This document shows, in pieces, positions 3,341 through 58,980 of a stretch of DNA of 64,000 bases; positions within the stretch are counted from its first letter, which is position 1; every line of letters begins with the position of its first letter. Both the position numbers and the translations under genes were made by a program. The notes under the pieces were generated by a model, which saw only the letters and a list, made by a program, of their open reading frames with translations, did not search any database and was not told the origin of the DNA. The stretch is from Chiloscyllium plagiosum (lineage: Eukaryota), in contig NC_057718.1 in the NCBI RefSeq assembly GCF_004010195.1, forward strand, positions 5,230,325 through 5,294,324. Direction: 5' to 3'.

Positions 3341-4444
3341 CTTTTTTTGTGTGGGAAAGGGTGGATTAATGATTAACTGAGAATACATAACAAGTAGAAA
3401 CCCAATTGACGTGTACAAATTATTGTCACAAGAAAATAATCTAGGTGCGTGTTACAAATGGGGATTTAATTGTGGGAGTCTCCAGAAATGTGTCAATACT
3501 TGTAAAGTGAACTGGAGGAGGCCATTCAACCCTTGAGCCAATTCATGGCTTTCTGCATTTCAACTCCATTCAGCCCCTTCTTTCCAAATCCCTTGATATT
3601 CTTACGAACAAAAATTGATCAATCTCAATTTTGAAATCTCCTGTTGGATAAAATATCCCCCTTTGCATTCCTCTTTTGTGGAGAAGTGTTGGCTGATTCA
3701 CTCCTAAACCTGATTTACTCCTTGACGACTTATTGCTATTTTTAAGGTTAGAATCAGACAGCACAGAGGGAAGTCATTCATTCCCTCATGTCCATACTAA
3801 CTCCTTGGTAGAGCTGATCAGGATGGCCCACCCCCCCCTTGCTGTTTAACCACTGGTCATTTATTTCCGCTACAAGTGTTTCACCCATGTGAAAGGATGA
3901 GAGGGCACAGGTTTAAATTAATCAATAAAGGTAGCAATAAGTGGTATGAGGAAGTTCATTATCACACAGAATGGAACACACTGCCTACAACTGAGGCAGG
4001 TTCACGTGAACCACTGAAAAGGAAATGGGTTATTACCATGTGCAGGGTTGCAGGGAGAGACGAGAGAGTGACACTAGGTGAGGTGTCTATTTCAAGAGTC
4101 AGTGCAGCAAAGGATGGGCCAAATGGCCACCATTGACACAGTAATAACTGTGAGGTTCTTTGGATTCCCCTAAGTTTGAAATTGATTGAATTGGTTTAGT
4201 ACAGAGAGACAGGCTTCCAAAATAATTTGGAATACATGCTGTAAAATGTATAATGTGCTTTTGTCCAAAGGTGTTGCAGATTTAATAGCATAACAGTGGT
4301 AGAAAACAATGTATTTACATCAATATATATAAAATCTATTTTTAAAAGTGTCAAAATTCAATGTAGGCAACTTGAGTCTTTCCGATCTGCTTCTGAATGC
4401 CCTGTCACCTGTGGCTCCTCAATAGAATGTAGGGCAGCAGCGGG

Positions 4445-5714
4445 TTATTGAAAGACTTGGTGAAAGCGGGGCAGAGGAGTTGGTGTGAGCAAGGAGGGGA
4501 AGGCTGGCGAGACTTGTTGAAGTTGGGTCAAATTCAAACCAGTGGCCGGGACACCCCCTTCCTGCTGCAGCTGCTGCTCGCAGAGGGGACCAGCCCTCTG
4601 CCCGGTCTCTCCTTGGCAATATGACAGCGCTGCATCGCCACCTTGACGCTGGTCGCTGGCACTAGGAGGCGGGAGTCCAAGCAAACAAGAGATGTCCGTG
4701 GAATTCATGTTCAGGGGCTTGATATCTTTATGCATGGTGCTGACACAGTCCGTGGTGTTCAGGGAGACGGTCAAAGTTTCAAAGCCAATGTCCGAGCTAT
4801 CCTTATCTGGCGCTGATTGGGATTCGAGCCCGGGTATATCTCCAGGTAAACTCACATTGTAGCTCCTTGTGCCAATCTTTGTAGACTTGTCTTTGCCGTG
4901 CAAGGGGCTATAGGAGGAACTGTTGAGCTGGTATCGTGGGGGATGCATACAATGGCTTGGAGGGGGTGGCACGGGAGGAGAAAGTATTGGAGATGGCATC
5001 TCCATGATAGTCCACCTTGTCCCCAGTGAGCTGGGCACCACGTGGTGAGTCTTTCTTGTGTGCTGCCTGAATGGTGAGGGATAGGTGTAGAGTTCAGTGC
5101 TCATGTTAGCATTGCCCTTCTGCTCCAGCTCATCGGGAGGATCAGGCCAGGCACCAGCCATCTCCTCCTTCAGGGAGGTGGGGAAGGCACCACTCATGGG
5201 CACCACCGCCCTGTCAGCCTCTGACCGCCCCTTCAGCAGCTCCTGGGCGTGGCTCTTCTTGGTGTGCCGCGTTAAGTGGTCCTTCCGGCCAAAGCGCTGT
5301 GAACAGAACTGGCAGAGGAAGTCCTTGCGCCCCGTGTGGACCACTGTGTGCCGCCTGACATCCTTGCGGGTGTAGAAACGGCGCTCACAGCGATCGCAGG
5401 CGTGACGTTTCTCCCGGGTGCTGCTGGCCAGCCTGCCCGCGTGGCCCTTCAGGTGCTCCAGGAGCTGGTCCAACTGCCCAAACTCACGGGCGCACACCCC
5501 ACATGTCAGGTCACCGCTGGTGGCTGTGTGCCACGCCAGGTGCCGCCTATAGCCCAGCTTGGTGTTGTACCTCTTGCCGCACTCGCCACACCTGAAGAGA
5601 GTCTTGTTGGGGTTGTGGGTCTGAAGATGGTTCTTGAGGTGGTCCTTCCGATGGAACATCTTCTCACAGTGTGAACATCGGTGAGGCTTCTGAGGGCAGT
5701 GACTGGCCATGTGT
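4445..5714 (-). CDS. PLAGL1: PLAGL1 terminal coding exon: end of ZF2, ZF3-ZF7 and Pro/Ser/Gln-rich transactivation region
   Basis: Translation [33 protein letters not shown]...[10 protein letters not shown]...[10 protein letters not shown]...[26 protein letters not shown], ending LPRFHQVFQ* (PLAG-family C-terminus). Acceptor cccttcag|A at 5715/5714. [10 protein letters not shown] and LTRHTKK match PLAGL1 as I recall it. Confidence 0.95.
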
Positions 5715-8700
5715 CTGAAGGGGCAAGCACACCAGGACTTTTCTTAGAAAACTCTTTCACCAAAGATCCTCACACAGCACCTTCCAAACCCACAACCACT
5801 TCTATCTAGTAGGGCAAGGGCAGCAGATACATGGGAACACCAGCCTTTGTAAGTTTCCCTCCAACCCATTCGCCATCCTGACTTGGAAATATATCGCTGT
5901 TCCTGGGTTGAAATCCTGGAATTCTCTCCCTAAGGGCATTGTGGATCTAGCTACAGCGCATGGACTGCTGCAGTTCAAGGAGGCAGCTTATCCCCACCTT
6001 CTCAAGGGGGAAACTAGGAACAGGCAATAAATGCTGGCCCCACGAATGAATAAACCAAAAAGGAAGATTAAAAAGGAAAGCAAGGTCTCAAATCTTCAGT
6101 TATGAGGGAGGTTTAATATGCTGATCCCCAAAGGACTCTGGTGAGGAAACCTACACACCCACTGAGGAACCATGTTCTCTGAAGACTGGGAGCAATAGAC
6201 TCATCCTGATTAGCTTCAATACACTACACCCCCCTCGATATGTGGCTGCTCTCTCAGATCAGAATGTGGCTGTCAGGTCGTGAACACAGATTCAAACCAT
6301 TCAAAGCCCAAACTTAATCCCAATATCAGGAAGGTAGCATCAGTATGAGATTAGCCAACTCAGAAGAGACTTCCGAGTTCAACAGTGGTGGCAAAATTCC
6401 TGGAATCGTTTGAGAGGCTTAGAAATAAATTCAGGTGTCGGCCATTCAGCTCCTCTAGCTGATTACAGTTTGTATGCAACCTCAATTTCATTTCTCCACC
6501 CAAAATCCATAGCCCTCAGTTCCCTTGGGGTCCAAAAGCCCATCTATCTCAGCCTTGTAAATATTAATGACTAAGTCCACAGGCATCTAGCACAGAGCGT
6601 TCCAAAGATTCACCTGTTAAAATGAAGACGTTCTTCTTCATTCTCATCCTAAATGGCCGATCACATATACTGAGACTGTGATGCCTAGTTCCTACACTTG
6701 CTGGCTATGGAAAGTGCCCATCAATACACCCTTTGAAGTTTTAATGAGATCACCTCTCATTCTTCTAAATTCTCCAGGATATCGGTCCATCCTGCTCTGT
6801 CTCTCCAAACAGGGACAGCCTTACCTCAGGTGTCAGCATATTTATCCTGTGATGGCTAAAATGAACAAGTGGTCATCCTGACTGGATCTTCAGATTGAGA
6901 TACAGTCTTGGCCAAAAAGATTCAGACTGAAGTCAAGGCCAATCAGGAACAAATAAGGTGGTGACTTCAACATAGTTTCTCAAAATCTGGTGGAATATTG
7001 ATACTTTCTAATCAACCCAGTCAGAGACGCACCTCTCGGGCAGGTAGGACTTAGACACAAGATGCCTGGCTCTGAGGTAGGGACACTACCACTGCATCAC
7101 AAGAGCCCCAGCCAGAGGATTCTAGGAAGACAGGTTTCTACAATTTACCCAGAAACCATTTAGATATTCATTGGGGTATCTCAGTTGCTTTCTATTATCA
7201 GGTAATGTCAAAGAAAGCAGTTCACTCCATCAAAAAGATCAACACAATTAAGGTCTCAGTCTTTATGAGATACTCTCAACACCCTAGTGACTGCTCATCC
7301 CTCAGCCAACATGACTAACCTGATTACCCTCTATTATCGCATTACTATTTGTGACATCTTGCTCTGCTAACTTTTGAACAGTGCTAAATGATTGCAAGAT
7401 CTTCCTTATTTCCCAGCTCTCTGAAGTTTCCTTGCTTCATGCTTAGATCTGCTAATCGATTGTTGTTTTTTTTTTAAATTATTCACTCCTGAGGTGTTGC
7501 TGGCTGGGCCAACATTTATTGCACATTCCTAATTGTCCAGTCAAAATTCAACCACAATGCTGTGGCTCGGGAATTACATTTAAGCCAGACCAGGTAAGGA
7601 TGGCACTTTCCCTCCCTGAAGGATATTAATGACAAAGATAGTTTATTTTATTGGAATCAACAGGCTTGCATTTAATTCAAAATTTTATTGATTTCCAATG
7701 GAACCATCTATCAAGGTGGGATTCGAACCCATGACCCCAGAATCTTAGCCTAAGGTTCTGGATTGCTATTCCAATGACATTACTACTTTGCCATTACCTC
7801 TGCAAAAAGATTTTTAATCAGTCTGTTCTCTGGTATTTTGACACATCTCTGGAGCAGATGGGGTTTGAGCCCAGGCCTCCTGGCCTAGAGGTAGGGACAC
7901 TACCAATGCACAAGAGATAGCGAATGCTCACTGTGGTGAGTCAATAACACCATTATTGGTGTATGATATCACTGATAGAAGGTGTACCTGCTTGATTTTT
8001 ATTCTCATGGCACATGGGCATCACTGGCTGTGCCCAGCATTTATTGCCCGGCTCTAGTTGCCCCTTGAGAATGTGGGGGTGAGCTGCCTTCTTAAACCGC
8101 TGCAGTCCACGCGCTGTGGGTGTACTCACAATGCCCTAAAGGAAGTAGTTCCAGGATGCTGACCTAATGACAGTGAAGGAACGGTGATATATTTGCAAGT
8201 CAGGATGGTGAGTAGAGGGGAACTGGCTGGGGGTGCCCTTGTCCTTCTAGATGGAAATGGTTGTGGTTGTGGGTTTGGAATGCGCTAGCTAAAGATCTTT
8301 GGTGAATTTCTGTAGTGCATCTTGTAGATAGTACATACTGCTGCTACTGAGCATCAGTGGTGGAGGGAGTGGGGGCTCGTGGATGTGGAGACAATCAAGG
8401 GGCTGCTTTGCCCTGGATGATGTCAAGCTTCTTGAGTGTTGTTGGGGCTGCCTCCATCCAGGGCAAGTGGGGAATATTCCATCACACTCCTGACTTGTGC
8501 CTTGTAGATGGTGGATTGGCTTTTGGGAGTCAGGAGGTGCGTCAGTCGCCTTAGTATTCTCAGCCTCTGACCTGCTCTTGTAGCCACTGTGTTTATGTAG
8601 AGAGTCCAGTTCAGTTTCTGATCAATGATAACTCCCAGGATGTTGATAGTGGGGATTCAGTGGTGGAAACAGCATTGAAAGTCAAGGGACGGTGGTTGGC

Positions 8701-11700
8701 TTGTCTCTTATTGGTGATGATCATAGACTGGCATTTGTGTGGCACCAATGTTACTTGCCACTTGTCAGCCCAAGCCTGGATATTGTCCAGATCTTGTTGC
8801 ATTTGAACATGGACTGCTTCAGTATCTGGGGAGTCATGAATGGTGCAATCATTGGTGAACTTCCGATCTTATGAAGGAGAAAAGGTCATTGATGAAGCAG
8901 CTGAAGATGGTTGAGCCGAGTAGACTACACTGGAGAACTCCTGCAAAGGTGGCCTGGAATTGAAATGACTGACCTCTAACAACCAAAACAATCTTCCTGG
9001 GAGTCAGGCATGACTCCAATCAGCAGAGAGTTTGCCCCCAATACCCACTGATTCTAGATTTTTCAGGGCACCATGATGCCACACTCGGTCGAATGCAGCC
9101 TTGATGACAAGGGCTGTCACTCTTACCTCCCCTCTGGAATTCAGCTCTTTTGTCCATGTTTGAATCAAGGCTGTAATGAGGTCAGGAGCGGAGTGGCCCT
9201 GGCAGAACAAAACCAGGGTGCCACTGATGACACCTTCCATGATTGGTACCTCATCCACCATCTTTCACGTTCACATCCTCCACCAGAGATGCACAATGGC
9301 AACATGGCGTTCTGTCTACAAGATGCGCTGCAGAAAATCATCAAAGGTCCTCAGATAGCACCTTCCAAACCCATGACCACTTCCACCTAGAAGGACAAGG
9401 GCAGCAGACACATGGGAACACCACCACTCTGCAAGTTCCACTCCAAGTTACTCACCATCCTGACTTGGAAATATATCGCCATTCCTTTGGTGTCACTGGA
9501 TCAATATCCAGGAACTCACATACCAATGCTACAGATGACTCTACACCCCAAGGACTGTGGTGGTTCCAAACTCTAGCTCACTACCATCTCTGGGGAATGG
9601 GTGATAAATATCGCCCAGCCAGCAACATCCACATCACTAAGTTTCTTTTTTAAAAAAGGTGCATCCTGGTCTTATTTCATCCAATAGTTGCAATGTTTAA
9701 ATTTTTGCCAAGGCCTTTCACTGCACCAAAGAGAGAGAGAGAGCAGGAGACTGACCAAAACACTTGGCGAAAGTGAGCACTGCAGTTGCTGGAGATCAGA
9801 GTCAAGAGTGTGGTTCTGGAAAAGCACAGCAGGTCAGGCAGCATCCGAGGAGCAGGCAGGAAAATTGACGTTTCGGGCAAAAATCCTACATCAGGGATGA
9901 GGCTGGGAGCCTCGGGTGGGTGGAGAGATAAATGGGAGGGGGATGGGGCTGGGTAAAGTCCACATTGATGCCCTGAGGTTGAAGTGTTCCGAGGCGGAAG
10001 ATGAGGCATTCTCCCTCCAGGCGTCAGGTGGTGAGGGAGCGACGGTGGAGGAGGCCCAGGGCCTGCATGTTCTCGGTACAGTGGAGAGGGGAAGTTGAAA
10101 TGTTGGGCACAGGGTGGTGGGGTTGATTGGTGTGAGTGTCCCAGAGATGTTCTCTGAAGCGCTCTGAGAGAAGGTGTCCGGTCTCCCCAGTGTCGAGGAG
10201 ACCGCATCGGGAGCAACGATACAGTAAATGACATGTGTGGAGGTGCAGGTGAAACTTTGATAGATGTGGCCTTGGATGGAGATAAGGGAGGAGGTGTAGG
10301 TGCAGGTTTTGCAATTCCTGCGGTGGCAGGAGAAGGTGCCAGGATGGGTTGGTGGGGGCGTGTGGGCCTGACAAGGTAGTCACGGACGGAACAGTCTTTA
10401 CGGAAAGCAGATAGGGATGGGGAGAGAAATATATCCCTGGTGGTGGAGTCCGTTTGTAGCGGGTGGAAACGTCGACGGATGATGTGATGTTTACGGAGGT
10501 TAGTGGGGTGGAAGGTCAGGACCGGGAGGTTCTGTCCTTGTTGCGGTTGGAGGGGTGAGGAGTGGGACGTGGATGAGGTGCGTTGGAGGGCAATTTGCGG
10601 TCTTTAAAGAAGGAGGCCATTTGGTGTGTTCTGTGGTGGAACTGGTCCTCCTGGGAGCAGATGCGGCAGAAGCGGAGGGCTTTTGCCCGAAACATCTAAT
10701 TTTCCTGCTCCTCAGATGCTGCCTGACCTGCACCACACTCTTGACTCTGACCAAAACACTCGGTCAAGGGATGAGTGAAGAGAGGGAGGGGTGTAGAAAG
10801 GGAATTTCCAAAGCTGCAGCCTTTACCTGATCAGTTTGTATTTGGAGATGAAAGCTTTGGCGCAGTCATGGTGTGAGCAGACATGTGGCCGTTCTCCGCT
10901 GTGTGTACAGGAGTGAGTGGTCAGCTTGTCAGCACTGAGGAAGACCTTCTTACACAGTGGGCACGGTAGGCTCTTCTGCACTTTCATCACTTGTCCCTCC
11001 TTGCCTGTGTCCATCTGTCCGTCTCGTGGCAGCACATTCAGACCTGGTGGCCACTTAGCCTGACCGTCAGGAGCAGGACTGTCTGCCTTCCAGCAAATGG
11101 GCATATGATCTGACCCCAAGCACCCGGTGACAGCCAATCCCCGTACGCTCCCTTGGCCTGAATCACTGCAGGGATGGGACTCCAGCAAACTGAAGGTGCT
11201 GAACACGTGGCAGCAGCTGGAGCATTTCCACCGGCTAGCAGTCTCCGTCTGCAGGAGAAAGAACAGGCATTTGAGGTTAGAGTTACAGATATGCACCCAT
11301 CAAGAATAGGATTGTGCCTGTCTCAGCCAGCTCTGTGAAAGAGCTAGTCAAATAGTCCTACTCTTTGGAAAGCACAGGAAAAGGCTGTTAGAATTGTATA
11401 ATGGAATCCCTACACTGTGCAAGCAGGGCATTTGACCCATCGACCTTCCAAAGAGCACCCCAACGTGGAACAATCTCATCCACATAATCCAACGTTTCCC
11501 CATGGCTAATCCACCTCACCTGGAAACAATCCACCTGACCTGCACATCTTTGGACTGTGGGAGGAAACCGGAGCACCCGGAGGAAACCCACGCAGACACG
11601 GGGAGAATGTGCAAACTCCACACAGACAGTCAGCTGAGGCTGGAATCAAACCCAGGTCCCTAGCGCTGTGAGGCAGCAGTGCTAACACTGAGTCACCCTT

Positions 11701-14700
11701 TGGCCCATTATGCGTGCCTTATTGTTGACAGTCAAAAAATATCCACTTTACTATTCTCATCCCATTCCCCGATACTTGGGCTCAAAGCCTTCTCAACTTT
11801 GGCATCGCTGGTGCACATCCAAATATTTCTGAAATGTGATGAGGGTTTCTGTCTCTCCCACCCTTACAGGCAGCGAGTTCCAGATTCCCACCACCCTCTG
11901 GGTGAAAAAGCAATTTCTCCCATCCCCTCCAAATCACCAGCCCCTTACTCTCTGATCATTAATCTCTCTGTCAAGGGGAAAAGTTTCTTTCTGTCTACCC
12001 TATCTATGCCCCTCGTAATTTTATACATCTCAGTTTCCTCTGCTCCAAAGAAAGCAATGCCAATATGTCCAATCTCTCTTCCTAACTGAACCTCTCCACT
12101 CTGGGTAATATCCTGGTAAATCTCTCTTGCACCCTCTTCAGTCATATCCCACCCCTCCCATAATATGGATTCCAGAACTGCACCCAATATTATAGCTGTG
12201 AATGAGCCCACATTTTACATAGTTCCAGCATCTTATGCTCTGTGCCTCAGCTTGAAAGGAAAGCATCCTCTGGCCTTTCCCTGTAATTCCCTCTCCTTCA
12301 GGTATTTCTTCAATTCCCTTTTGAAAGTTTCCAGTGAATTTGCTTCCATTGCCCTTTCAGGCTGCATGTTCAAGATCACAAGAACTCACTGAATAGAAAT
12401 AAACCATCCTTCTCAAAGAATTCTCTGGTTCTTTTCCCAATTATACCTCTGTTCCTTTTGGTTACAGCCCGTCGGGGCAAGTCTCTCCATCTGTGCACTT
12501 CACTTCCCCGATATCACCTGATGGACCTCTGATCCTTCCAGAGATGAGGAAAAGCCAAATAAGCAATTGGTAGAGAGGCCTTGGGAAAAGTATCTGCTCT
12601 GTCTGCTAGAGCTGGGTCAGTCCTCCCTTCACAGCTCAAAAATAAATGGCTACAGTCAACTATTTAGATTAGAGGAGACTCCCTACAGTGTGGAAAAGGC
12701 CCTTCAGCCCAACCAGTCCACACCGACCCTCCAAAGGGTAACCCACCCAGACATATTTCCCTCTGACTAATGCATCTAGCACCATGGGTAATTTAGCATA
12801 GCCAATTCACCTAACCTGCACATCTTTTGATTGTGGGAGGAAACCTGTGCAGACACAGGGAGAATGTGCAAACTCCACACAGACAGTCACCTGAGGCTAG
12901 AATTGAACCTGGGACCCTGGTGCTGTAAGGCAGCAGTGCTAACCATTGAGCCACCATGCCACCCCTATACATAGAAATATAGTCTTCCATTTCTGTTGAG
13001 ACTTGTCCATATCTTGACACACAGGGAAGTATCCAAACTCTTCATATCCAAATCAGTTTGTTTAGAAATGCAGTAACTGTTCATTTACAGTTAATCAAAC
13101 TTGCCCATTTTCTCCGCTCAGAGAACAAGGAGATGAAAGAGGTATCATCGACCAAGGGAGAAATGTTGAACAGGGCACTGGGTGCGTCACCAGTGACTGT
13201 TACTGCTCACCTCAGGCAGTAGAATGAGTTCCCATGGGCAGAAAACAGAACCTGAGATCTTTCAAGTCTGTTTGACAAAGAGACTGGTTCTCTAGCTTTG
13301 CGGTATCGGTAAGACTCGACTGGTTTAACCTCTGGCGATGTGAATTAACCCAACCGAGCCAATCCCTCAGTGACAAACTGAGACTTACTGCAGCTGGAGA
13401 TGTGGAGAGCCCAGGCTCCTGTTTGATTACCACTAAAGGAGCTTCCATGAATTTGGCGTAATCTGCCGCATACCAGACTTTCAGCTCCATCTGGGGTTGG
13501 ATATTCTGTAGAAGAAACCATTCTATTACCATCGACATTGTTAAAACTTAACCCTGATGCACATCGCACTGCTCTGTATGTATCTATCTGCTGTGGCAGA
13601 GCTCCATACTGGATGGGACTGGTCTAAACACTGACATCTACAGGAAGCACAGAATAAAAACATTCCAGCAAGAAACAAGAATTCCAAAGCAAATAAAAAT
13701 GTTAAAGATGGTATTAAACTTAACATTAAAGCATATAATTACACAAAGGTCTGCAGATACAGCTCTGGTTAATAAAGCAGGGAAAAGGTGGATTGCAAGA
13801 GAAAGCTAGCTAGAAATATAAAATCAGATTGAGGTTCTAGCAAGATGTAAAGGGCTACATTTGCTGACACCAGTCTGTGTGTTCTATGTCCCTCTTAAAT
13901 TCACAAAGATGTGAATGATTGGTTTTGGAGGGTGTGGCCCAATACCCGGGGGTAAGCAAAGGGGTGGGAGGGGCAAGGAAAGGGGCTGGTGGAGGCTTCC
14001 AGGCTCCCACATCCTTTTCCCCACCTCACCCAACCCCCACCCCGTCCTATCCTCCCACACCTGTGACCGCACTCCCATTACACATCTCCCCCTCCATCCT
14101 GTGTCCCCACATAGCCCCCATCCCACGTCCTAATTCCCATCACTTTTGCAAATTCCACACGATCGAGTCTTGGCTCTGGAATCGCAGATGCATAGATGCC
14201 CGCTGTTGTAGGGGTCAGTCAACGCTGCCTTTCTCCCAGTCAGTGAGGATAGATTCATGGTGGGTAAGAAGGTGAAAGGTCATCAGAGGGTAGGGAAATG
14301 CAAAATAAACAGCACAGCTATGGTCTGACTGAATGGCAGCACAGGCTTGAGTGGCAGAGTGGCCTACTCCTGCTCCTAATTGGTGTTAGTTAGCTCAGTT
14401 GGCTGGACAGCTTGTCTGTGATGCCAACAGTGTCAGATCAATTCCTGCACAAGCTGAGTTAACATGAAGAAGGACTCTCCTCACTCTCTCTCCTCACTGA
14501 GGTGTGGCGACCCTCAGGTTAACCCACCACCAGTCTCTCTCTCTCATGAGAGAGCAGTCCTATGATCCGGTAAGACATTGGTGACTTTATCTTGAGCTTT
14601 ATTCATGTGTTTGTACATACCCGTTCCCCTCCAATGGATCTCCAGCCCCTACCTTTACAGTGGTGAAGTACACTTCTCCCTGGTGCTGATACGCTACGAG

Positions 14701-17700
14701 GGTTTGCTCCTCCAGATTCCTCGCAGGACGGACAAACATCATCCAGTTACCAGCCTCTTCGTCTGGCGTGTTCAGGAAATATTTCACGCCGTCCTTTAAA
14801 ACCTGAGGGAGTCAAGAGTGCATATATAGAACAAGGTACAACAAGGTCTCTCTCAAACTCAAGCTTAACTCAAGGGAGACAGTAAGCTACCTTCCCCCCA
14901 AACCCACCCTCTCCCATTTATCTCTCAGCCCCCAGGCCCACAAGCCTCATTCCTGATGAAGAGCTTATGCCCGAAATGTCGATTCTCCTGCTCCTCGGAT
15001 GCTGCCTGATCTGCTGCGCTTTTCCAGCACAACACTCTCGACTCTGATCTCCAGCATCTGCAGCCCCCACTTTCTCCTATATATATTTCAATCTCAGGTG
15101 AAAAAGTCAGGGATGTTCAGTAGGTGGTACCCCTATGCTAAGCTTGGAAAATTCAAGGGCTTAAGATGGCAGATGCTGAGACAGTGTTTCTATTGGCTGG
15201 AAAGTAACAAACTAGGAGGTCATAATATCACTTTGTTCTGAGATGAGGTAGATATTTTCAGTCAGACGATGACAAATCTTTGCAATTCTTCATAGAATCA
15301 TAGACTCCATACAGACTGGAAGCAGTCCATTCAGCCCATTAAGTCCACACCACCCCTCTGAAGAGCATTCCAAATAAATCCACACCATCCCTGCAGTCCT
15401 ACAGTTCCCATGGCCAATCCTTCTAACCTGAACATCTTTGGACTGTGGGAGGAAACCAGAACATCCAGAGGGAAACTTCAGTGAGTCCTTGATGCTGAAT
15501 ATACTCACAACTGAGATCGCTAGATCTTTAGGTGCTAAGGAAATGCAGGGTTAATTTTTGAAAGTGGAGTTAGTGTAGAAGATTAGCCATGATCTTCCTC
15601 ATTGGTGTGGCATGTTTAAGGCACCTTGGACATTCCTCATGTAACTCCAAACCCATTGCAAGGGAAGGCAGAAAAATTGTCATCGAGGTGGAGAAGGAGG
15701 CCACTCAGCCCACTGAGCCTGCTTTGCCATTCTAGATCATTGCTGAAGGCCATATTCATGCACTGTCCTCATAACCCTCTGCATCATGAGGAACTAGAAA
15801 TCTATAAATTTCTGTCTTGAACTTGGTCAATGAAGGAGCATCCTCAGCCCTCTGCGGTAGAGAATTCTAAAGATTCACGACCCCCTGAGAATAAGAATTC
15901 CTCTTCATCTCACTTGTAAATGGTTTGTCCCTTATTCTGAGACTGTTCCCCTGGTTCTAGGCCCTTCAGCCCATCTAAATTTACCCAATGAAGCCCTGTA
16001 AGGATTTTGTAAGTCTCAATGAGTGTACTGCACATTTTTTTGAAACTTGAGAGAATCCAAGGCTAATCCCTATGTACCCTTCACATAAGACAATCCAGCC
16101 TGCACAGGAATTATCTTTCTCAATCGCTACCTGTAACACAAGCCTGTTGTCATCATTGTTAGTGAGACTGGTTGAGAGCTGGCCTACGTAGGGTCCAAAC
16201 TGTGTCCTCTTCTGGATCATCTTCTTGGCAAATACACCGAGGACTGCAAGGAGGAGACAAATGACACAAAATTACATCAGAATCACATTATAGACCCAGC
16301 TGGTCCCCACCAGTGCTTCTGCTCCATTCAAATCACATGTCTCCCTGTCAGCATCACCTCTATTGCTCTGTCCTTCAATAGCTCTTCCTCCCAACCCTAT
16401 CCCAAACCCACGAGGGAAAACTGCTTCTCAACGTCAACCCTTTTTGAAATTTAAAGATCTCTTTCTATCGGATTAGGAGGCCTATCCTGTTGAACCTCCC
16501 CCAGTGGACGGGTGCACATTGTGGTCCAACCAAGCTCCGGTAGGAGTTTAAAGTATAGATGGTGGGTCAATCACAAAGTGATAGCAAATGCACAGGCGTG
16601 GTTCAGGAATGTGAAGCCATGCACGCTGCAAGAGGCATCTCAAAACAATACTCAATATGGAAACAATATTCACTTGTTCTGCTGTTGGTTGGTACATTGG
16701 CCTTGATAGACAGGACTAGCCTGCATACCAATAACTCCATGAACACGTCTGTGTACCCGCAGCTTTATTGGCTATTAGGAGCCTAACCTTCCCTGGGGCA
16801 CCAGGAATTAAAATCTTTCAAGAGTTCACGGATTCAGTTAAGGACTATTATGACTCCAAGCCTTCTCTAATTCTGAGACACTATCGATTTACTCGGCAAA
16901 TCGAGAAACAAGAGAATCCATATTGGGATTTTGACTGGGTTAAGATCACTGGCAGAGGGAAGTGACTTTGATTTAGCCCTTAATGAGATGCTGAAAGACT
17001 GGTAAGTGAGATAAATGATGTAACCATGCAAAAGCCCGTGTACACTATGGACAATTTAGTATTGCCAAACTCCCTAACCTGCATATCTTTGGACTGTGGG
17101 GGGAAACCAGAGCACCTGGAGGAAACCCACACAGCCACAGGGAGAATGTACAAACCCCACCCTGTCCATCACAAACATGAAGGGATCTAACACTGATCCC
17201 TGTGGTATGCTACTGCACACTGGGCTCCAATCACACAAACAGCCTTCTAATACCACCCTCTGTCACCTGCCACTAAGCCAACTTTGGATCCATCTCTGTG
17301 AACCAGTCTGTGAACCAATGTCGCTGAGTACTAGCCTGTGTACCAATGTGGCTAGTCCAATTCAGTTTCGGGTTGATGTTAACTCCAAGATGTTGCCTCT
17401 TTGTCCCATTCCTTACTTTGCAACTGCTTCTGCCATGTATTCATTGTCATGTCCCCTTCTCCTCTGGTTTCGAACCATTCACCTCAACCTGTAAGAGGTA
17501 CTTTCAGAACCCGAGGCACATTTGGCACAGTCTCTGTACCGGGCACTCACTGTGTTTGTTGACAGCTGGCATCTCCAATACTCGGAGGGCAAGGTAATGT
17601 GGAAGACTCAGCCTGGCACGGCTGGGAATGCTCCTGTCCTTCACCTTGATCAACGGTCCATGTATCCTACACTCTCCTGGCAGGCACTTCCCACAGTCCA

Positions 17701-20603
17701 CGCACCCTATGACAACAACAACCTGCATTTATATAGCAGCTTTAATTGCAGCTGATCTAGAGACTGAACCAAGAAAGAGCAAAGAACAAAGAAAATTTAC
17801 AGCCCAGGAACAGGCCCTTCAGCCCTACAGGCCTGAGCTGATTCAAATGTACTGTCTAAACCTGTCAGTCAATTCCTAAGCATCTGTATCCTCTGCTCCT
17901 CACCTACTCATGCATCTGTCCAGACGCATCTTAAATGAATCTACCGTGCCTGCCTCTACCATCTCTGCTGGCAATGCATTCCAGACACCCACCACCCTCT
18001 GTGTGAAGTACTTGCCACATGTATCCCCTTAAACTTTCCACCTCTCACCTTGAAAGCATGACCTCTCGTTATTGAATCCTTCACCCTGGGAAAAAGCTTG
18101 TCTCTATCCACCCTGTCTATACCCTTCATGATTTTGTAAATCTCAATCAGGTCCCCTCTCAATCTCCTTTTTTTCTACTGAAAATAAACCTAACCGACTC
18201 AACCTCTCTTCATAGCTAGCACCTTCCATACCAGGCAACATCCTCGTAAACCTTCTCTGCACCCTCTCTAAAGCATCCACATCCTTTTGGTAATGTAGCG
18301 ACCAGAACTGTACACAGTATTCTAAATGCGGCCGAACCAATGTTTTGTACAATGTTAACATGATTTGCCAGCTCAATACCCCGTCCAATGAAGGCAAGCA
18401 TACCATATGCCTTCTTGACCACTCTATCCACCTGTCCATTGTACCTTCAGGGTACAATGGACCTGCACTCCCAGATCTCTCTGCCCCTCAATTTTTCCCA
18501 AGGCTCTTCCATTCATTGTATAATTCGCTCTAGAATTAGTCTTGCCTAAATGCATCACCTCACATTTGTCTGGATTGAAAGCCATCTGCCACTTGTCCAC
18601 CCAACTCACCTATCTCTATTCTCCTGTATTCTCTGACAGTCCCTTATGCTTTCTGCTACTCCACCAATCTTCGTGTCATCTGCAAACTTGCTGATCATAC
18701 CAACAGTGCCCTCTTCCAGATCATTTATGTACATCGCAAACAACAGTGGCCCCAATACTGACCCCTGTGGAACACCACTGGTCACCTTTCTCCATTTCGA
18801 GAAACACCCTTCAACTATTACTTTCTGTCTCCTGTTGCTCAACCAGTTCTTTATCCACCTAGCTGGAACACCCTGCACACCATGTGACTTCACTTTCTCC
18901 ATTAGTCTACCATGGGGAACCCTTTCAAACGCCTTACTAAAGTACATGTATATGACATCAACAGCCCTTCCTTCATCTATCAACTTGGTCATTTCCTCGA
19001 AGAACTCTATCAAGTTGGTAAGGCACGGTCTTCCCCTCACAAAATCATGCTGCCTATCACTGATAAACTCATTCTTTTCTAAATATAAATAGATCCTATC
19101 TCTCAGTACCCTCTCCAGCAACTTCCCCACCACCAACGTCAGGCTCACTGGTCTGTAATTACCCGGAATATCCCTACTATCCTTCTTGTACAGGGGGACA
19201 AGAAATTAAAGAATTAAAGTTCAGTATCGCGAAATAGCAGATTAGTGATCTCCAGCTGTGGGTTGCCTCCTGTGTGGGACCACATACTTGCTTTTTGCTT
19301 TTGGACTCCAAGCTGGAAGATGGAAGTTGGTCATTGATATATCGCTATGGCAACCAGAAAAATATTTAAGATCAAATAGGATTGTCTGGTGCACCCTGCA
19401 ATTCTACATGATTATACTATTTTATAGAATCCCTACAGTGTGGAAGCAGGGCATTCAGCCCATCAAGTCTCCGAAAAGCATCCCACCCAGATCTACCCTA
19501 TCCCTGTAACTTCCCATGGCCAATCCACCTAACCTGCACATCTTTGGACTGTGGGAGGATACCAGAGTACCCAGAGGAAACCCACACAGCCACAGGGAGA
19601 ATGTGCAAACTCCACACAGACAGTTACACAAGGCTAGAATCGAACCCACGTCCCTGGTGCTGTGATACAGCAGTGCTAACCACTGAGCCACCGTGTCACA
19701 CGTTATACAGCAGTGACATGAATACTTTATGAGAATGGGTACACTAGGAGTTTTTAGTAAAGGAAAATCTGCCTAATGACAGCCTTTGTATTGGTCTGGC
19801 TGCAGTTTGTTAGGCCAGTGGGTGCTATGTACTCAGAAGTATCTAGAAACATGTGAACAAGGAGTATCTTTCACCATCTCTCTCTGTGACCGAAAGAGCA
19901 AAACAAAAACGAAATTCTAATAGAGGAAAAGATCTAGAGATCCATCTAATGAACTATGCAATGAATGATCAATCAACACTTTGCAGCCAACATCACGTCA
20001 CCATCACTAAGAAAAAAATTCAAAAAGATTGTGAGAAACTATCTGCCCCATGTTTTGGTCTGGACTTTGAGCAACAGAATTTGTTTCTCCCTGTCTATAT
20101 TTTTTCATCTGGATAATTTGTGTCAAATCATCTGTACTTTATCTGTCCTATTTGTGAAGGAATGCTCGTCTGATTGGGTTTTTAAGGTCATAGTTTAAGT
20201 TGAACTTCATTGAGATCTAATCCTGTTTTGTTTGCCATTTGTTGAATGAGTTTCTTTTGTTAAATAAGTAGATATTTTCCTGTTAATAAGGAAAGCCAGT
20301 GTGAATTGATTTTGTCCTGAATAGCAGTGAATCAGGCGAATGAATTATTTTGGTCAGATATTTATGACGGCTTAGGAATTGTCGGGCTCTATTCTAGCAC
20401 GTTTTTCTCTAGTGGATCAGGACCTGACTCTGATCATCTTCCAACATTCATTCACTTGGAGACTGATGTGTGTGTGTACTTTAAATGAGGAGTTCTGAAT
20501 AAAACAAGTAGGGGAAATGAGCTACAAGTGAACACAAGTCAAACTTTCCAACATAATTTAAGACAAAGAGAAGATTGAACTTACAGAGCTCGTCGGAGGA
20601 CAT
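4445..20603 (-). CDS. PLAGL1: PR/SET-domain-containing PLAG-family zinc-finger protein (PLAGL1/ZAC1 orthologue); predicted 7 coding exons join(20603..20585,17706..17551,16243..16131,14802..14653,13505..13389,11248..10827,5714..4445), 748 aa
   Basis: All six introns are GT...AG with compatible phases (1,1,0,0,0,2). Exon lengths 19+156+113+150+117+422+1270=2247 nt with no internal stop. The C-terminal part is clearly PLAG family and the N-terminal part is a PRDM-type zinc knuckle + PR domain. Linked on the same strand to SF3B5, as human PLAGL1 is. Confidence 0.82.
5755..6055 (+). mobile_element. 3' end of a second LINE family (CR1/L2 group)
   Basis: Same sequence as 9330-9630 (+) and the reverse complement of 8000-8330, ending aataaatgctggcc...aatgaataaa. 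Confidence 0.7.
7490..7800 (-). mobile_element. Second SINE family; related copies at ~23690-24040(+), 25815-26120(-), 27865-28150(+), 42770-43045(+)
   Basis: Shared core ccagaccaggtaaggatggca...ttccct / agggaaggaaa...ccttac...ggtctgg, a tRNA-like head (gggttcgaatcccacc) and a tail shared with the second LINE family. Confidence 0.65.
8000..9640. mobile_element. LINE (CR1/L2 group) RT fragment on minus (8000-9215) abutting an oppositely oriented 3' fragment on plus (9230-9640)
   Basis: [40 protein letters not shown] and [17 protein letters not shown] are RT motifs. Confidence 0.8.
9765..10746 (-). mobile_element. Penelope-like element 3' fragment (GIY-YIG remnant) with inverted terminus and target-site duplication
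   Basis: [26 protein letters not shown]. Direct repeat CTGACCAAAACACT at 9751-9764 and 10747-10760. Confidence 0.8.
10827..11248 (-). CDS. PLAGL1: PLAGL1 exon: degenerate C2HC finger, linker, PLAG ZF1 and most of ZF2
   Basis: [27 protein letters not shown]...[48 protein letters not shown]. Acceptor tttctcctgcag|ACG. Donor AG|gtaaag at 10826; AG+A makes the Arg in KYKLIR-HMASH. Confidence 0.92.
11404..11690 (-). mobile_element. HE1/V-SINE-like SINE
   Basis: Same consensus as 3001-3340. Confidence 0.85.
12665..12964 (-). mobile_element. HE1/V-SINE-like SINE
   Basis: Same consensus, with a small internal deletion. Confidence 0.85.
13389..13505 (-). CDS. PR/SET domain C-terminal exon (39 codons)
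   Basis: [39 protein letters not shown], containing the PRDM ELxVWY motif. Acceptor ttcttctacag|AAT, donor GCA|gtaagt, phase 0/0. Confidence 0.9.
14653..14802 (-). CDS. PR/SET domain core exon (50 codons)
   Basis: [59 protein letters not shown]...EQxLVAYQ is the PRDM10/15-type motif. Acceptor tccctcag|GTT, donor AAG|gtaggg. Confidence 0.92.
14895..15078 (+). mobile_element. Penelope-like terminal fragment with hammerhead-like motif
   Basis: CTGATGAagagcttatgcccGAAAtgtc at 14953-14980, followed by the common ctgctcctcggatgctgcctga...ccagcatctgcag terminus. Confidence 0.7.
16131..16243 (-). CDS. PR/SET domain N-terminal exon
   Basis: (I)[40 protein letters not shown]...KRTQFGP is the PRDM10/15-type motif. 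Acceptor ctccttgcag|TC (phase 1), donor CAG|gtagcg. Confidence 0.9.
16780..17030 (+). mobile_element. Gypsy gag fragment inside a PR-domain intron
   Basis: Similar to 32120-32370 (ttaaggactattatgactccaagccttctctaattctgagacactatc...tcggcaaa). Confidence 0.65.
17551..17706 (-). CDS. PRDM zinc-knuckle exon
   Basis: (W)[51 protein letters not shown]. The WCxxC-x7-CxxHGP...SRARxSLP pattern is the PRDM4/10/15 zinc knuckle. Acceptor gttgtcatag|GG, donor A|gtgagt. Confidence 0.9.
17780..19200 (-). mobile_element. CR1-clade LINE 3' fragment
   Basis: [18 protein letters not shown]...[20 protein letters not shown]...[32 protein letters not shown]. Confidence 0.92.
19425..19696 (-). mobile_element. HE1/V-SINE-like SINE
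   Basis: Same consensus. Confidence 0.85.
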
Positions 20604-20618
20604 GTTCGAGGAGGATAT
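20585..20618 (-). CDS. Micro-exon carrying the putative start (ATG 20603-20601, MSSDEL) and the T of the conserved knuckle Trp
   Basis: ttttcctcagcag|ATATCCTCCTCGAACATGTCCTCCGACGAGCTCT|gtaagt. The consensus donor is phase 1, and T+GG of the next exon gives TGG (W) of WCxxC. The ATG has A at -3. Confidence 0.75.
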
Positions 20619-23600
20619 CTGCTGAGGAAAATACTGTTTAGTAAAACACACAGCGACAGTCCTTAATCCTTCCATAACTTTGCCAGTACGATTCCTTGTC
20701 TCACCATTTACTTTCATGATTCCATCAATCTTTGAAAGCTCTTGCCTTGGTTGGAATACAGAAGTCAATGAATTAAAGGAAAGAATCGGACTCTAGAGAA
20801 ATCTCCCAAGCGCCATATAATTGAGACACTGCAACAACAACAAACAACCCACCACTTGCACTTAAAACACAGCCTTAATTAAACTGCTCCAAAGCACACC
20901 ACTGCAGCACTATTGTGCATTGTTGAACAGTAACATAGGCAGACGTTAATTGACCAAAAGCTGGTCAAATGTGATAAGCTTTAAAGAGGAGGAAAGCGAG
21001 GTTGAGAAGTTTAGCGAGGCACTTGGGGCCTTGGCTGTCTGTGGGAGCTTGCTGTGTGCTGTGATTCCTCTGTTATACCAGAGACCATAATCTCTATTGT
21101 GTCCAAAACAGATTCTGAGGACATGAAAGGCTCTATTTAAATGCAATCTTTTTTTAAAAACAAAACAGCCATATTGATATCTCCATGGAACTTTAATCTC
21201 TTTCCCTGTAAATGACAAACACACAACCCCTTGGGAAGAGATTAGATCATTCTCCAGGGGGTTTTAAGCTGTAGCATCAAATTCTAGCAATGCCCTTCGC
21301 TACTCAATCATCCCCTCCCAAATTCGCCAGTAACATTCTATGCTCACCACTACAACATTCCTGCAAACAACACTACATTTCTTTGATGTTTATTTTCATT
21401 GAGGCACAAGATATGGACTCCATTGATAACACTGGCATTTGAATCTCTCTCCTCACTGGCCCAACGATGGTATTGCTGAATCTTCTCATGTATTCAGCAG
21501 AAATACCTTGATACAACTGAGCGGCCATTTCGGAGAGAACTTGAGTTCTGGTTTGGAATTGAAATCACCCCTGTAGTGCAGAGTGGTCAGAACAGTCAGT
21601 TCGCTGCCCTAAAAGGTGATCAAATTAGATTTTTATGACACTGCTGATTCCGGCTTTTAAAACCTAGTGCTTTCTTAAAACTGATATTATGGTGGAGTAT
21701 ACCTGATTATTAGCACAGACCTTGAAAGTAATTTAATGACTGCATCATTATTTGTTTCTGTTTATTTCTGTTGACATCCAGTGAAAGCTGCAGTCAGCAC
21801 TGGTGAGGAGTCTTCAGCGAGTCCATAAAACAGCCTTCAGAGCCTAAATTGGGAGTGAAATCTGAGTGAATTTCAGCAAATTTGGATTGTGGGTCAACCC
21901 ACAACGGACTGCAGCAGTTCAAGAAGGCAGCTCACCACCACCTTTTCAAGGGGCAACTAGGGACAGGCAATAAACGCAGGACTCAGCCAGTGACTCCAAT
22001 GTCCAATGAATGAATAAAAAACACTTGCTCTTTTTGCTTCACCCCCCACACTTCAGTGAGAGACCACAAGGTAAACAATCTCACCAACAAGCAGTGGAGG
22101 AAATAAACGGGGAATCTCAATCCCAGAACTTGGAACCTATTGCATTGAAACAAACTGTTCAGCTCAACTAATCTCTGCTGGTATTTATACTCTTCAAAAG
22201 CCTACTCCCAGTCCATTCACCTTATCTCAGCCTTCCAGGGCATCTTTCTATCCCCATTTCTCTCATGTTCTCATCTGGTTTTCTGAGAGAGGAGTTACCC
22301 ATGAGAGGAAAGGTGTGTCTGTTAGATTACCCATCCAGTCAGGTGCATTCTTGGAGGTTTCATCACAACCATTCCATTTTCCTGTCCCTCATCAGCACAT
22401 GGCTCCTTATTGGGTCAATTGGTCAAATGGTCTCTTCTCACACTTCATTTCTTTAGCTTAGTATCTTGCTCCATTCCACAACATCACACTGGACTCATTC
22501 CTGTGCTGGAACTGCATCATTGCACACTATCCTGATCAGGGGCACAGATCTCAAGGGAGAGGCATGAATCATTGTCTGCTGAAATGGTAGATCTGTCTAG
22601 ATTGAGGGCTGGGTATGGATCTGTCTTGCTCAGTGAGGCACATCCATATGATATATAAAGATCATTTGAGAGAATGGATTTTCAAACAGTAGCATTTGGG
22701 ATTGCTTTTCTGAAGCATTTCTTTAGAAATAACTAGGTCAGATAATCCTTCTGAAATAGTGATCTAATTCAGTATAAGTTAGACAACAGAGAACCCTTGG
22801 AGTGTTAATAAAAGATTGTTTTTACTGCTTCTTTTATGACAGTTTGAGTAAACATTAAAGCTATTTGCTTATTTTTGATTAAGACAAGGATTGTTGTTGA
22901 AACTGAAAGTTTTTCAGGCAGTTCAGAATAGACCTGAGAAGGTTCAGATAAATATAGTTAGCTAAGCAAATATAATTTCTCTCTGAGAAACAAGTACAGT
23001 ATATGACAGTTCAGGGAAAACATGGTTATTTTAGTCTAAAAGTTTAGTTTGTGAAACATCCAAACCAAAAGTATTTGGTTAGAAATCTGCAGGCTGAGAA
23101 AGTTTAAACTCACAATTGATAGTCTACAGAAACAGAACTGGAGAGAATCAGTGAGACAAAATTTAAAGATTTTATATGGAGGAGTAATTTCACTAGATTT
23201 GAGTCTCTGTAATGGATAGCATCAGAAAACAGCTTGAGACTTTGTTTTTCAGTGTGTATCAAAACCATTCAAACTGCGTTCCAGAATTAGAAAATCTTTT
23301 TACTTGACTTTTGTGTAATAATTTTCTATTCCATTGTTAATAAAAAAAAACTGCAGTGCAGCATAACTATATTTAATTGAATGACTACCACGTTATCTAA
23401 AATAAGACCTTTCATTCTAGGATTTGACTTATTCAGCTTGGATCCCAACAAGGAACACATTTTATGGTCGATAAGGAGGGGAGCAAATATTAGGTCTGAC
23501 TGCGGGGTGAATGATATGGCCATTAAAACAGTAATTGTATGACTTGACTTGTTAATCACCAGGCAGATCCTTCCAACACTTCACACCCATCTCTGAGGCA

Positions 23601-27775: not shown

Positions 27776-28226
27776 GGATCCATCTTGACAAGTTACCCTA
27801 GATCTTGATGTTAGAAAACTTCCTAAAACTTCCTGCACAATTTTACAATAAAATGTGTTTGGCAAGATGGCCTAGTGGTATTATTATCACTGAACTATTA
27901 ATCCAGACACCCAGGTAACATATCTGGGTTCAAACCCAGCCACACAGATGGTAGAATTTGAATTCAATTTATTTTCAAAAATCTGGAATTTGATAACCAT
28001 GAATCCATTGTCCATTGTTGGGACAAACCCATCTGCTTCACTTTAGGGAAGGAAACTGCTATCCTTAACTGGTCTGGACTTCAGACCCACAGCAATGTAG
28101 TTGACTCATACCTGCCCTCTGGGCAATTAGGGACGGGCAATAAATGCTCTCCTATCCTACCAGCCACAGCTTTTGCACAGCTTTGATCTGCCCCTAATGC
28201 ATCCTTGGTTTGATTTACTTCAGCAA

Positions 28227-36369: not shown

Positions 36370-36770
36370 TATCCGGGCGGGGAGAGGAGACAGAAGGAAG
36401 ACTGCGGAAAGAGAGAGAGAGAGAGAGAGAAGTTCAGAAACTCCAGCTCTGGGTCAGGAGTTGCAGTTTTGCATTGTCAGAGAACATGCTGCCGAGAGGG
36501 GAACTCACCCGCATCGCATCGCCCCCCTCCCCGCCCCTCATTCACACCTCCTCCGAACGGCCTCTCTCTCCGCTCCTCACTGCTCCCCGAGGGTCCCTCC
36601 GTCCCTTCCCGTACAACAGGCAGGCCAACTCGACCAGATCCTGGGGGCGGGATTCACAAAGGAAGTTCACAATTCTTCACAAATGGAACCTACCAGTCAC
36701 TGAGAGCTGCAGGGGGCCCGGGGACGTGGGAAGAGGGGAGGAGAGGAGGGGCGATACTACTGTTGTAACT
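36370..36770 (-). promoter_or_regulatory. CpG/GC-rich island with candidate first exon of the PR-PLAGL1 gene (donor GTGAGT at 36508-36503)
   Basis: CpG-rich patch in a CpG-poor window that I could not assign to a repeat family. GC-box CCCGCCCC occurs twice. Minus strand reads ...GCGATGCGATGCGG|gtgagtt. Confidence 0.5.
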
Positions 36771-58121: not shown

Positions 58122-58174
58122 NNNNNNNNNNNNNNNNNNNNNNNNNNNNNNNNNNNNNNNNNNNNNNNNNNNNN
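58122..58174. other. Assembly gap (53 N)
   Basis: Run of N. Confidence 1.
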
Positions 58175-58261: not shown

Positions 58262-58522
58262 TCAGGCCTCCTCGGGCTTGTCGGGCGGGGGCCCGCACGG
58301 CTGCAGCATCTTCTCCATGAGGTTGAAGCGGACCCGGGCCTTGGTTTCGTTCTCGGCCACGGCGAAGTAGTTGAGGAGGTCGAAGTGGCCCATGTACGAG
58401 GCGTACGAGTCGCGGTGCTGGTTGACGAGCCACTCCCACTTGGTGGTGTCGGCGTGCCCGGTTCCGATGTACTTGGACTGGAGATGCTCCAGCTGGCTGT
58501 GGATGTTGTAACGGTCAGTCAT
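58262..58522 (-). CDS. SF3B5: Splicing factor 3B subunit 5 (SF3b10), 86 aa, CDS uninterrupted
   Basis: MTDRYNIHSQLEHLQSKYIGTGHADTTKWEWLVNQHRDSYASYMGHFDLLNYFAVAENETKARVRFNLMEKMLQPCGPPPDKPEEA is near-identical to vertebrate SF3B5. True ATG at 58522; the ORF track's extension starts at a non-ATG codon. CpG-rich. Confidence 0.97.
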   Translation of the reverse strand: MTDRYNIHSQLEHLQSKYIGTGHADTTKWEWLVNQHRDSYASYMGHFDLLNYFAVAENETKARVRFNLMEKMLQPCGPPPDKPEEA

Positions 58523-58524
58523 TG

Positions 58525-58980
58525 CGATGATGGCGGCGGTGGCTCTCCCCCCGAGAGGTTCAAATTCGAATCCCAACCGTCAACCGCCCTCCGAGGAAAA
58601 CCCAATATGGCCGCTGTTACCATGGTTATCTCCACGTGTCCCTCAAAAAAACAGCCACCAGTACAAATTGATGAAAACTAACTTAAAATGAAGTCGTAAT
58701 TTTGTTTCAACGTTAAATAAAATCTTGCTAAACAATGGTTTTAAAAATTAATGTATATTCTTGCGCAGGCGCATTAGGATAACATGCATAGAAGCCACGC
58801 CCCATCCCAGGCGACTTTTTTCACGTACTAATTGGAATGAAAAACCGAGCCTTACCAAACAAAAACACTGACGAGAGTATGATTAGTTTTAACATAAAAT
58901 ATTTTTTTTAGTGAATCGGTGTAACTAAATTGAACGGTAATGGTGCGCAGGCGCATTGGCTGTTGAAGCCACGCCCCGTG
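58525..58980 (-). promoter_or_regulatory. SF3B5 housekeeping promoter
   Basis: NRF1 motif TGCGCAGGCGCA at 58762-58773 and 58944-58955. KLF/SP motif GAAGCCACGCCCC at 58791-58803 and 58965-58977. ATTGG (CCAAT box) at 58955-58959. YY1-like AATATGGCCGC at 58604-58614. Confidence 0.7.

Follow-up and report, generated by a model that had tools for sequence, protein, structure and literature searches.

A probable shark PLAGL1 gene with a predicted PRDM-type zinc knuckle and PR domain ahead of its PLAG fingers

PLAGL1 (also ZAC1 or LOT1) and PLAG1 have been studied heavily in mammals, in connection with imprinting, transient neonatal diabetes, tumours and livestock growth, and always as plain zinc-finger factors. 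Together with PLAGL2, they carry seven PLAG-type C2H2 fingers and a C-terminal activation region; to our knowledge, all three mammalian proteins start at or just before finger 1 and have neither a zinc knuckle nor a PR domain nor a C2HC finger. Reviews of the PRDM family count 17-19 members, and PLAG proteins are not among them. Some of these factors, namely PRDM4, 6, 7, 9, 10, 11 and 15, also have a knuckle ahead of the PR domain. Here we analyse a stretch of 64,000 nucleotides from Chiloscyllium plagiosum (assembly GCF_004010195.1, contig NC_057718.1, forward-strand positions 5,230,325 to 5,294,324; the whole stretch is called the window, and its first letter is position 1). We propose that the window very probably holds the shark PLAGL1 in the ancestral full-length PLAG form, as a single gene for a PRDM-like, sequence-specific transcription factor.

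Seven coding exons on the minus strand, from 20603 to 4445, were joined by script into one frame of 748 amino acids (aa), which begins MSSDELWCVDCGK and ends LPRFHQVFQ:

Exon 1, 20603..20585, minus strand: 19 coding nucleotides (nt), MSSDEL plus 1 nt, with the conserved start ATG at 20603 and donor GTAAGT.
Exon 2, 17706..17551, minus strand: 156 nt, zinc knuckle and start of the PR domain (SRARLSLP...).
Exon 3, 16243..16131, minus strand: 113 nt, first part of the PR domain (LGVFAKK...FGPYVG).
Exon 4, 14802..14653, minus strand: 150 nt, core of the PR domain.
Exon 5, 13505..13389, minus strand: 117 nt, last part of the PR domain, then the beginning of the linker.
Exon 6, 11248..10827, minus strand: 422 nt, post-PR C2HC finger (WKCSSC...H-x-C), variable linker, PLAG finger 1 and the beginning of finger 2.
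Exon 7, 5714..4445, minus strand: 1270 nt including the stop, rest of finger 2, PLAG fingers 3-7 and a low-complexity C-terminal region.

All six introns open with a GT donor (GTAAGT, GTGAGT, GTAGCG, GTAGGG, GTAAGT and GTAAAG) and close with a pyrimidine-rich acceptor ending in AG, and the entry phases of the exons (0, 1, 1, 0, 0, 0, 2) leave the frame unbroken through all of them. The NCBI model 'zinc finger protein PLAG1-like isoform X1' from Hemiscyllium ocellatum (P0001, 764 aa) matches the predicted protein at 725 of 748 positions (96.9% identity) with zero gaps. Since this alignment is gapless over every exon border, an independent gene model uses all six junctions. The exon joining is a prediction from the splice signals, the phases and the gap-free match to independently made models. 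An earlier reading made from the letters alone (hereafter the sequence-only reading) had given the same exon set, phases, GT-AG sites, 748-aa open frame and 13389/11248 junction, all of which our script reproduced; every peptide that it quoted falls in an open frame of the minus strand between 20.8 and 4.4 kb.

The predicted protein starts with a CCCH zinc knuckle, followed by a PR/SET domain, a single C2HC finger, seven C2H2 fingers of PLAG type and, at the C-terminus, a low-complexity region; two features of the PRDM family, a PR-type SET domain and a C2H2 array C-terminal to it, are found in one frame. When the exons were scanned one by one against Pfam, exon 3 matched positions 14-46 of PF21549 (PRDM2_PR; E 5.3e-6), exon 4 positions 53-100 (E 1.4e-16) and exon 5 positions 101-123 (E 8.6e-4). 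This colinearity on one Pfam model makes a chance join of unrelated open reading frames (ORFs) far from likely. Full-length orthologues score 113-130 bits for PF21549 (cut-off 27) and 26-34 bits for SET (cut-off 22.4), and the 15 matches of exon 4 among PDB sequences are all PRDM proteins, with PRDM4 (9.2e-12) and PRDM10 (6.1e-10) at the top. The predicted knuckle, C-x2-C-x7-C-x2-H, lies at 17704..17660 in exon 2. All four of its ligands are invariant in the 22 proteins that we aligned, and it can be aligned position by position with the part of PRDM10 where the Pfam knuckle model PF18445 scores 24.9 bits. The NWMMFVR and VWY stretches are likewise invariant in this alignment, and the ligands of the post-PR C2HC finger nearly so.

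The C-terminal part of the predicted protein is of PLAG type. Exon 7 contains five zf-C2H2 stretches (E 3.4e-13) and exon 6 further fingers, the PLAG finger hallmarks FHRKDHL, FYTRKDV and GRKDHL.RH occur in order, and the nearest ESM Atlas clusters of exon 7 are PLAG1, PLAGL1, plagx and PLAGL2 (0.97-0.99). The ending P[RH]FH[QH][AV]F[QK] is present in 18 of 29 PLAG-type rows, including P0001, and the LPRFHQVFQ of the window conforms to it. A six-frame C2H2 pattern scan of positions 4000-21000 found fingers in exons 6 and 7 only, its single chance match elsewhere (11542-11613) falling within a repeat; this agrees with the earlier observation that the stretch from the PR exons to the PLAG exons is free of other finger arrays.

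An arrangement of this kind could also be produced by two genes falsely joined, that is, by a predictor reading through from a small PRDM-like gene into a PR-less PLAGL1 downstream of it. Short database entries named 'PRDM10', 'PRDM4' or 'PRDM15', partial, which hold the PR part only (P0007, P0009, P0010 and P0014-P0016), are what one would expect from such an upstream gene. However, these entries are labelled partial and come mostly from short contigs, and the comparable P0021 reaches finger 2. At the locus itself, the frame of exon 5 runs without a stop to a consensus GTAAGT donor in phase 0, the phase in which exon 6 begins. Furthermore, the post-PR C2HC finger, a counterpart of which follows the PR domain directly in PRDM10 as well, shares its exon with PLAG finger 1, and the same join was predicted independently in many species from five phyla with the order of hallmarks unchanged. 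We therefore regard a false join as very improbable, and treat the locus as a single gene.

The sequence-only reading could not tell whether the gene was already annotated. It is: the gene is part of the automatic annotation of NCBI and UniProt, where, besides P0001, dozens of orthologues named PLAGL1 or PLAG1-like carry precomputed PF21549 matches. Exon 4, used as the query against longer proteins, gave 29 matches from 30 candidates. Seventeen of these, named PLAG1-like or PLAGL1 and 648-775 aa long, combine PF21549 with C2H2 families; they belong to seven sharks, birds, a crocodilian, turtles and a hemichordate, and no mammal is among them. Public annotation shows the complete architecture in 7 shark species, birds, turtles, crocodilians, amphioxus, a hemichordate and echinoderms. 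From sharks and sauropsids to amphioxus, the hemichordate, crinoids and sea stars, the hallmarks follow one constant order: knuckle, NWMMF, WY, post-PR finger, three PLAG finger motifs and the C-terminal end. Among the annotated shark and sauropsid proteins, P0001, P0004 (Scyliorhinus canicula), P0018 (Alligator mississippiensis) and P0023 (Mauremys mutica) share the architecture of the window from the knuckle to the C-terminal motif. They represent the same gene in other species. P0001 has 23 differing residues, of which none is in exons 1-5; identity of the alligator protein to that of the window is 72% within the first 215 residues and 73% across 209 aa of fingers.

When residues 17-235 of P0001 were used as the query, and the best 120 of 519 matches considered, the top 25 rows were all PLAG proteins with a PR domain (hereafter PR-PLAG), at 187 bits or more, from sharks, a crocodilian, turtles, birds, amphioxus, a hemichordate and echinoderms. 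After these the score falls to teleost PRDM10, at 146 bits or less. The same 120 matches hold one PR-bearing PLAG cluster per species, and no PLAG with a PR domain from a mammal, squamate, amphibian or teleost, a result of a word-indexed protein search that is no proof of loss. The first 175 residues of the hemichordate protein retrieved the same architecture in crinoids, sea stars and amphioxus, followed by vertebrate PRDM15 at about 45% identity.

The bird and turtle entries named 'PRDM10', 'PRDM4' or 'PRD15, partial' (P0007, P0009, P0010, P0014-P0016 and P0021) are 80-86% identical to exon 4 and carry the PR-PLAG hallmarks, and P0021 continues into PLAG finger 2. They appear to be N-terminal fragments of PLAGL1 that were given the name of another family.

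The N-terminal module is conserved as closely as the fingers. Between the window and sauropsids, identity is 66-72% in exons 1-2 with the knuckle, 75-77% in the PR domain and 69-72% over the seven fingers, as opposed to 24-30% in the linker and C-terminal region. The comparison with P0001 gives no differences at the 185 positions of exons 1-5 and 23 at the 563 positions elsewhere (Fisher p 0.0022). Judged by protein identity and difference counts, constraint on the PR module is at least as strong as on the DNA-binding domain, which indicates strong purifying selection.

The sequence-only reading had described the gene as a chimera of PRDM and PLAG parts. One form of this proposal is that sharks captured PR exons of a PRDM10/15- or PRDM4-like gene by exon shuffling, and the 39-46% identity of the PR module to PRDM10/15 would suit such a source. 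The module is, however, far closer to those of other PLAG proteins: the shark module is 72% identical to that of sauropsid PLAG, 57% to that of amphioxus and 40-43% to those of the hemichordate and echinoderms, and it groups with them in the order of the species tree. In a maximum-likelihood tree of the knuckle, PR domain and C2HC finger (33 rows), the window adjoins P0001 and falls with PR-PLAG, the internal order of which is that of the species, and PRDM10 and PRDM15 form separate clades (100/98 and 100/100). A lineage-specific capture is thus exceedingly improbable. In its evolutionary sense the term chimera does not stand: hemichordates, echinoderms, sharks and sauropsids all have the conserved architecture, and the module tree follows the species tree.

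The fingers of the window, compared over about 205 aa, share 73% identity with alligator PLAGL1, 66% with amphioxus and 60% with the hemichordate. Three protostome proteins, from a nemertean, a brachiopod and an annelid (P0037-P0039), have fingers 41-49.5% identical to those of the window over about 204-220 aa (E 1e-58 to 1e-66), whereas the fingers of true PRDM10/15 reach 26-33%. All three have a PR domain as well (111 and 121 bits in the two that were scanned, and a precomputed PF21549 match in the third). Two of them are named PRDM15-like and PRDM10 by NCBI; because of their finger similarity we did not accept the three as ordinary PRDM10/15. P0037-P0039 are probably protostome PR-PLAG orthologues. 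The architecture of knuckle, PR domain and PLAG fingers is at least as old as the deuterostomes and, since PLAG-type fingers and a PR domain occur together in these three proteins, probably bilaterian.

By sequence and fold, the nearest paralogues are PRDM10, PRDM15 and PRDM4. PRDM10 and PRDM15 share with PR-PLAG the predicted N-terminal order of CCCH knuckle, PR domain and a zinc finger immediately behind it. PRDM10 aligns to P0001 with 39% identity over 212 columns of knuckle, PR domain and next finger (E 4e-42), and is colinear with it over fingers 3-7 as well (29% identity, E 6e-22). The two relatives differ in their length of 1000-1200 aa, their long N-terminal extensions and their more numerous and different fingers; the separate clades and the finger identity of 26-33% set the window protein outside the PRDM10/15 subfamily. 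PRDM4 is the best structural match for the knuckle and PR domain, differs in its finger array and in the protein overall, and is not among the tree rows.

A wider reading is that PLAG factors are an overlooked PRDM subfamily of bilaterian age, kin to PRDM10/15 along the whole protein. Under strong constraint, the knuckle and PR domain would have persisted in sharks, crocodilians, turtles, birds, amphioxus, hemichordates, echinoderms and some protostomes, and they would have been lost both from mammalian PLAGL1 and from its paralogues PLAG1 and PLAGL2. The loss in mammals may be tied to remodelling of the 5' part of PLAGL1 with imprinting. We consider the chances of this wider reading to be evenly balanced. 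If it is true, the well-studied mammalian PLAG proteins are truncated derivatives without the ancestral chromatin-effector domain.

The fold of the module was predicted on P0007, a bird N-terminal fragment whose matches among PDB sequences are all PRDM proteins, with PRDM10 (5.7e-26) and PRDM4 (5.4e-25) at the head and PRDM9 (5e-18) among them. The folding alignment, deepened with 295 unnamed matches to exon 4 among protein representatives that served this purpose solely, comprised 129 rows as used; the alignment of 22 sequences gave a predicted local distance difference test score (pLDDT) of 37.2 and was discarded. The AlphaFold model has a mean pLDDT of 82.6, with residues 1-163 and the post-PR finger confident and the linker disordered. 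Foldseek placed it closest to PRDM4 (3db5, E 9.4e-14, target template modelling (TM) score 0.86-0.88), then to PRDM10 (3ihx, E 2.9e-12, TM 0.85), followed by other PRDMs, with PRDM9 at E 4e-11 to 7e-11, and by classical SET enzymes.

These data bear on what the PR domain may do. In a PRDM9-like role it would be a working lysine methyltransferase that writes a histone mark at PLAG-type sites. The complete PR/SET fold, gapless against the profile, is compatible with this, as is the presence of PRDM9 structures among the matches both by sequence and by Foldseek. Conservation over more than 400 million years, as strict as that of the fingers, would fit an active site, and the Y of the WY motif and NWMMFVR are invariant in 22 of 22 sequences. 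However, the closest proteins by sequence and fold are PRDM10, PRDM15 and PRDM4 rather than PRDM9. The biochemical role of the PRDM10 PR domain is reported to be unknown (PMC7368010), and defined activities are reported for just a few of the 19 PRDMs (PMC9861158). We consider a working methyltransferase unlikely. In the PRDM10 study, the finger domain alone gives no transcriptional activation, which is supported by the fingers in combination with the N-terminal part that contains the PR domain (PMC7368010). By analogy with this nearest relative, we favour a non-catalytic or weakly catalytic effector role.

We propose that the seven fingers of shark PLAGL1 would bind GC-rich sites of the PLAG/ZAC type, in line with work on the mammalian PLAG proteins, and that the knuckle and PR domain would serve as an effector at these sites. 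The PR module may be non-catalytic or weakly catalytic and act in protein interaction or transcriptional activation, a role towards which we lean with moderate confidence. We further propose that the PR-less mammalian PLAG proteins are a derived state, reached through loss of the PR exons.

The gene itself is likely the shark orthologue of PLAGL1. Upstream of it, on the same strand and 38 kb away, lies a neighbour that adjoins PLAGL1 at human 6q24 too, and the sauropsid orthologues are named PLAGL1 by NCBI:

SF3B5, 58265..58579, minus strand: intronless gene, PF07189 (SF3b10), E 1.1e-41, full profile 1-78.

An N gap of 53 positions, 58122-58174, lies just downstream of SF3B5.

Several points weigh against our reading of the locus as a full-length, PRDM-like PLAGL1. 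None of the 24 sequencing runs listed for exon 7 is on record as RNA, so the exon joining is indirect. Assignment to PLAGL1 as opposed to PLAG1 or PLAGL2 depends on SF3B5 as the single syntenic neighbour, on the gene order in human and on the names used in databases. PF18445 matched neither exon 2 nor the four orthologues scanned; the sequence-only reading had expected Pfam to find a knuckle, a PR domain and C2H2 fingers, and its expectation was borne out for the last two and not for the first. The predicted fold is that of the bird orthologue fragment (213 aa, 71% identical to P0001) and not of the window protein. The module tree has a midpoint root only, the branch that places the deuterostome PR-PLAG on one side has moderate support (64/88), and the four protostome rows sit on long, unresolved branches. 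Finally, exon use varies between database models, with bird P0019 and shark P0006 lacking the knuckle exon and P0017 and P0022 lacking exon 5; this may reflect alternative splicing or annotation noise.

Such variation is also compatible with the PR-containing transcript being minor. Sharks would then mainly make a mammal-like PLAGL1 that lacks the PR domain and begins at an internal promoter or start close to finger 1. Orthologue models do vary at their 5' ends, P0006 and P0019 being without the knuckle exon and P0029 without most of the N-terminus. Exon 6 has a methionine just ahead of finger 1, and the window itself offers two alternative ATGs. However, strong purifying selection on exons 2-5 implies that the PR product is functional at any abundance, and models from 7 shark species and from invertebrates commonly show the complete architecture. 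A predominantly PR-less product therefore seems doubtful to us.

A description of a PR-containing PLAG was not found in the literature searched, subscription journals being outside its scope. The word 'PLAG' occurs 0 times in the main text of the PRDM census of Vervoort et al. 2016 (PMC4760075), and motifs of the PLAG fingers and of the PR domain specific to PR-PLAG occur 0 times in the part of its sequence supplement that was searched. It also occurs 0 times in the main text of Fumasoni et al. 2007, and a bivalve PRDM survey has none. A duck study treats PLAGL1 as a plain zinc-finger factor. Together with the Pfam matches and the colinearity with P0001, the silence of the Vervoort and Fumasoni texts supports the sequence-only claim of one gene with knuckle, PR/SET domain and PLAG fingers that falls outside the usual PRDM list. 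Apparently, PR-containing PLAGL1 has been annotated automatically and has gone unrecognised as a PRDM subfamily. The sequences are public already, and the value lies in recognising the pattern rather than in a new gene: the ancestral PLAG protein would be a PRDM-type factor, and non-mammalian PLAGL1 would remain one. This would add one more subfamily to the PRDM family tree and, since one DNA-binding domain occurs both with a PR effector and without it, provide a natural comparison of the two states. It also means that the mammalian domain structure should not be presumed in studies of chicken, duck, turtle or shark PLAGL1.

Two further features concern the 5' end of the gene:

Upstream 5' exon (coding end), 36509..36541, minus strand: ATG...CGG, 11 codons (MRGGEGGDAMR), gtgagt donor.
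Exon 1 with its 5' part, 20585..20618, minus strand: acceptor cag/ATATCC at 20618; the 15 nt ahead of the ATG read ISSSN, as in P0001.

An in-frame TGA sits immediately before the ATG at 36541. MRGGEGGDAMR has 2 differences from the first 11 residues of P0001 isoform X1, and the 16 extra N-terminal residues of P0001 correspond to these 11 codons (36541..36509) plus 5 from the 15 nt between the acceptor at 20618 and the ATG at 20603. The upstream ATG is thus a predicted start of an optional N-terminal extension, which would give 764 instead of 748 aa. The exon-1 ATG is the start in orthologues from catshark to hemichordate, which makes 748 aa the conserved product. With the upstream exon, the gene extends over at least 32 kb and comprises 7 coding exons plus that exon; the extent of 20603..4445 given by the sequence-only reading thus holds for the coding exons but not for the start of the gene. 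An N gap at 37305-38098 lies just upstream of the 5' exon, and the promoter may be incomplete in the assembly.

A scan of 124 other ORFs of at least 75 aa in the window found only SF3B5 and two RVT_1 pieces. The RVT_1 stretches at 18606-19205 (minus strand, 83 bits) in the intron after exon 1 and at 9004-9264 (minus strand, 19.8 bits) in the intron after exon 6, are degraded, in line with the earlier remark that the neighbouring repeats are decayed. A third broken RVT_1 (28198-28865, plus strand, 39/28 bits), like the other two of the long interspersed nuclear element type, lies in the intron after the upstream 5' exon. Copies of a short interspersed repeat, with near-identical ORF peptides, occur in the introns on the minus strand at about 11516-11629, 12776-12886, 16980-17168 and 19498-19623, with mirror copies on the plus strand. 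GC skew is strong (0.51) at positions 1-2000 of the window.

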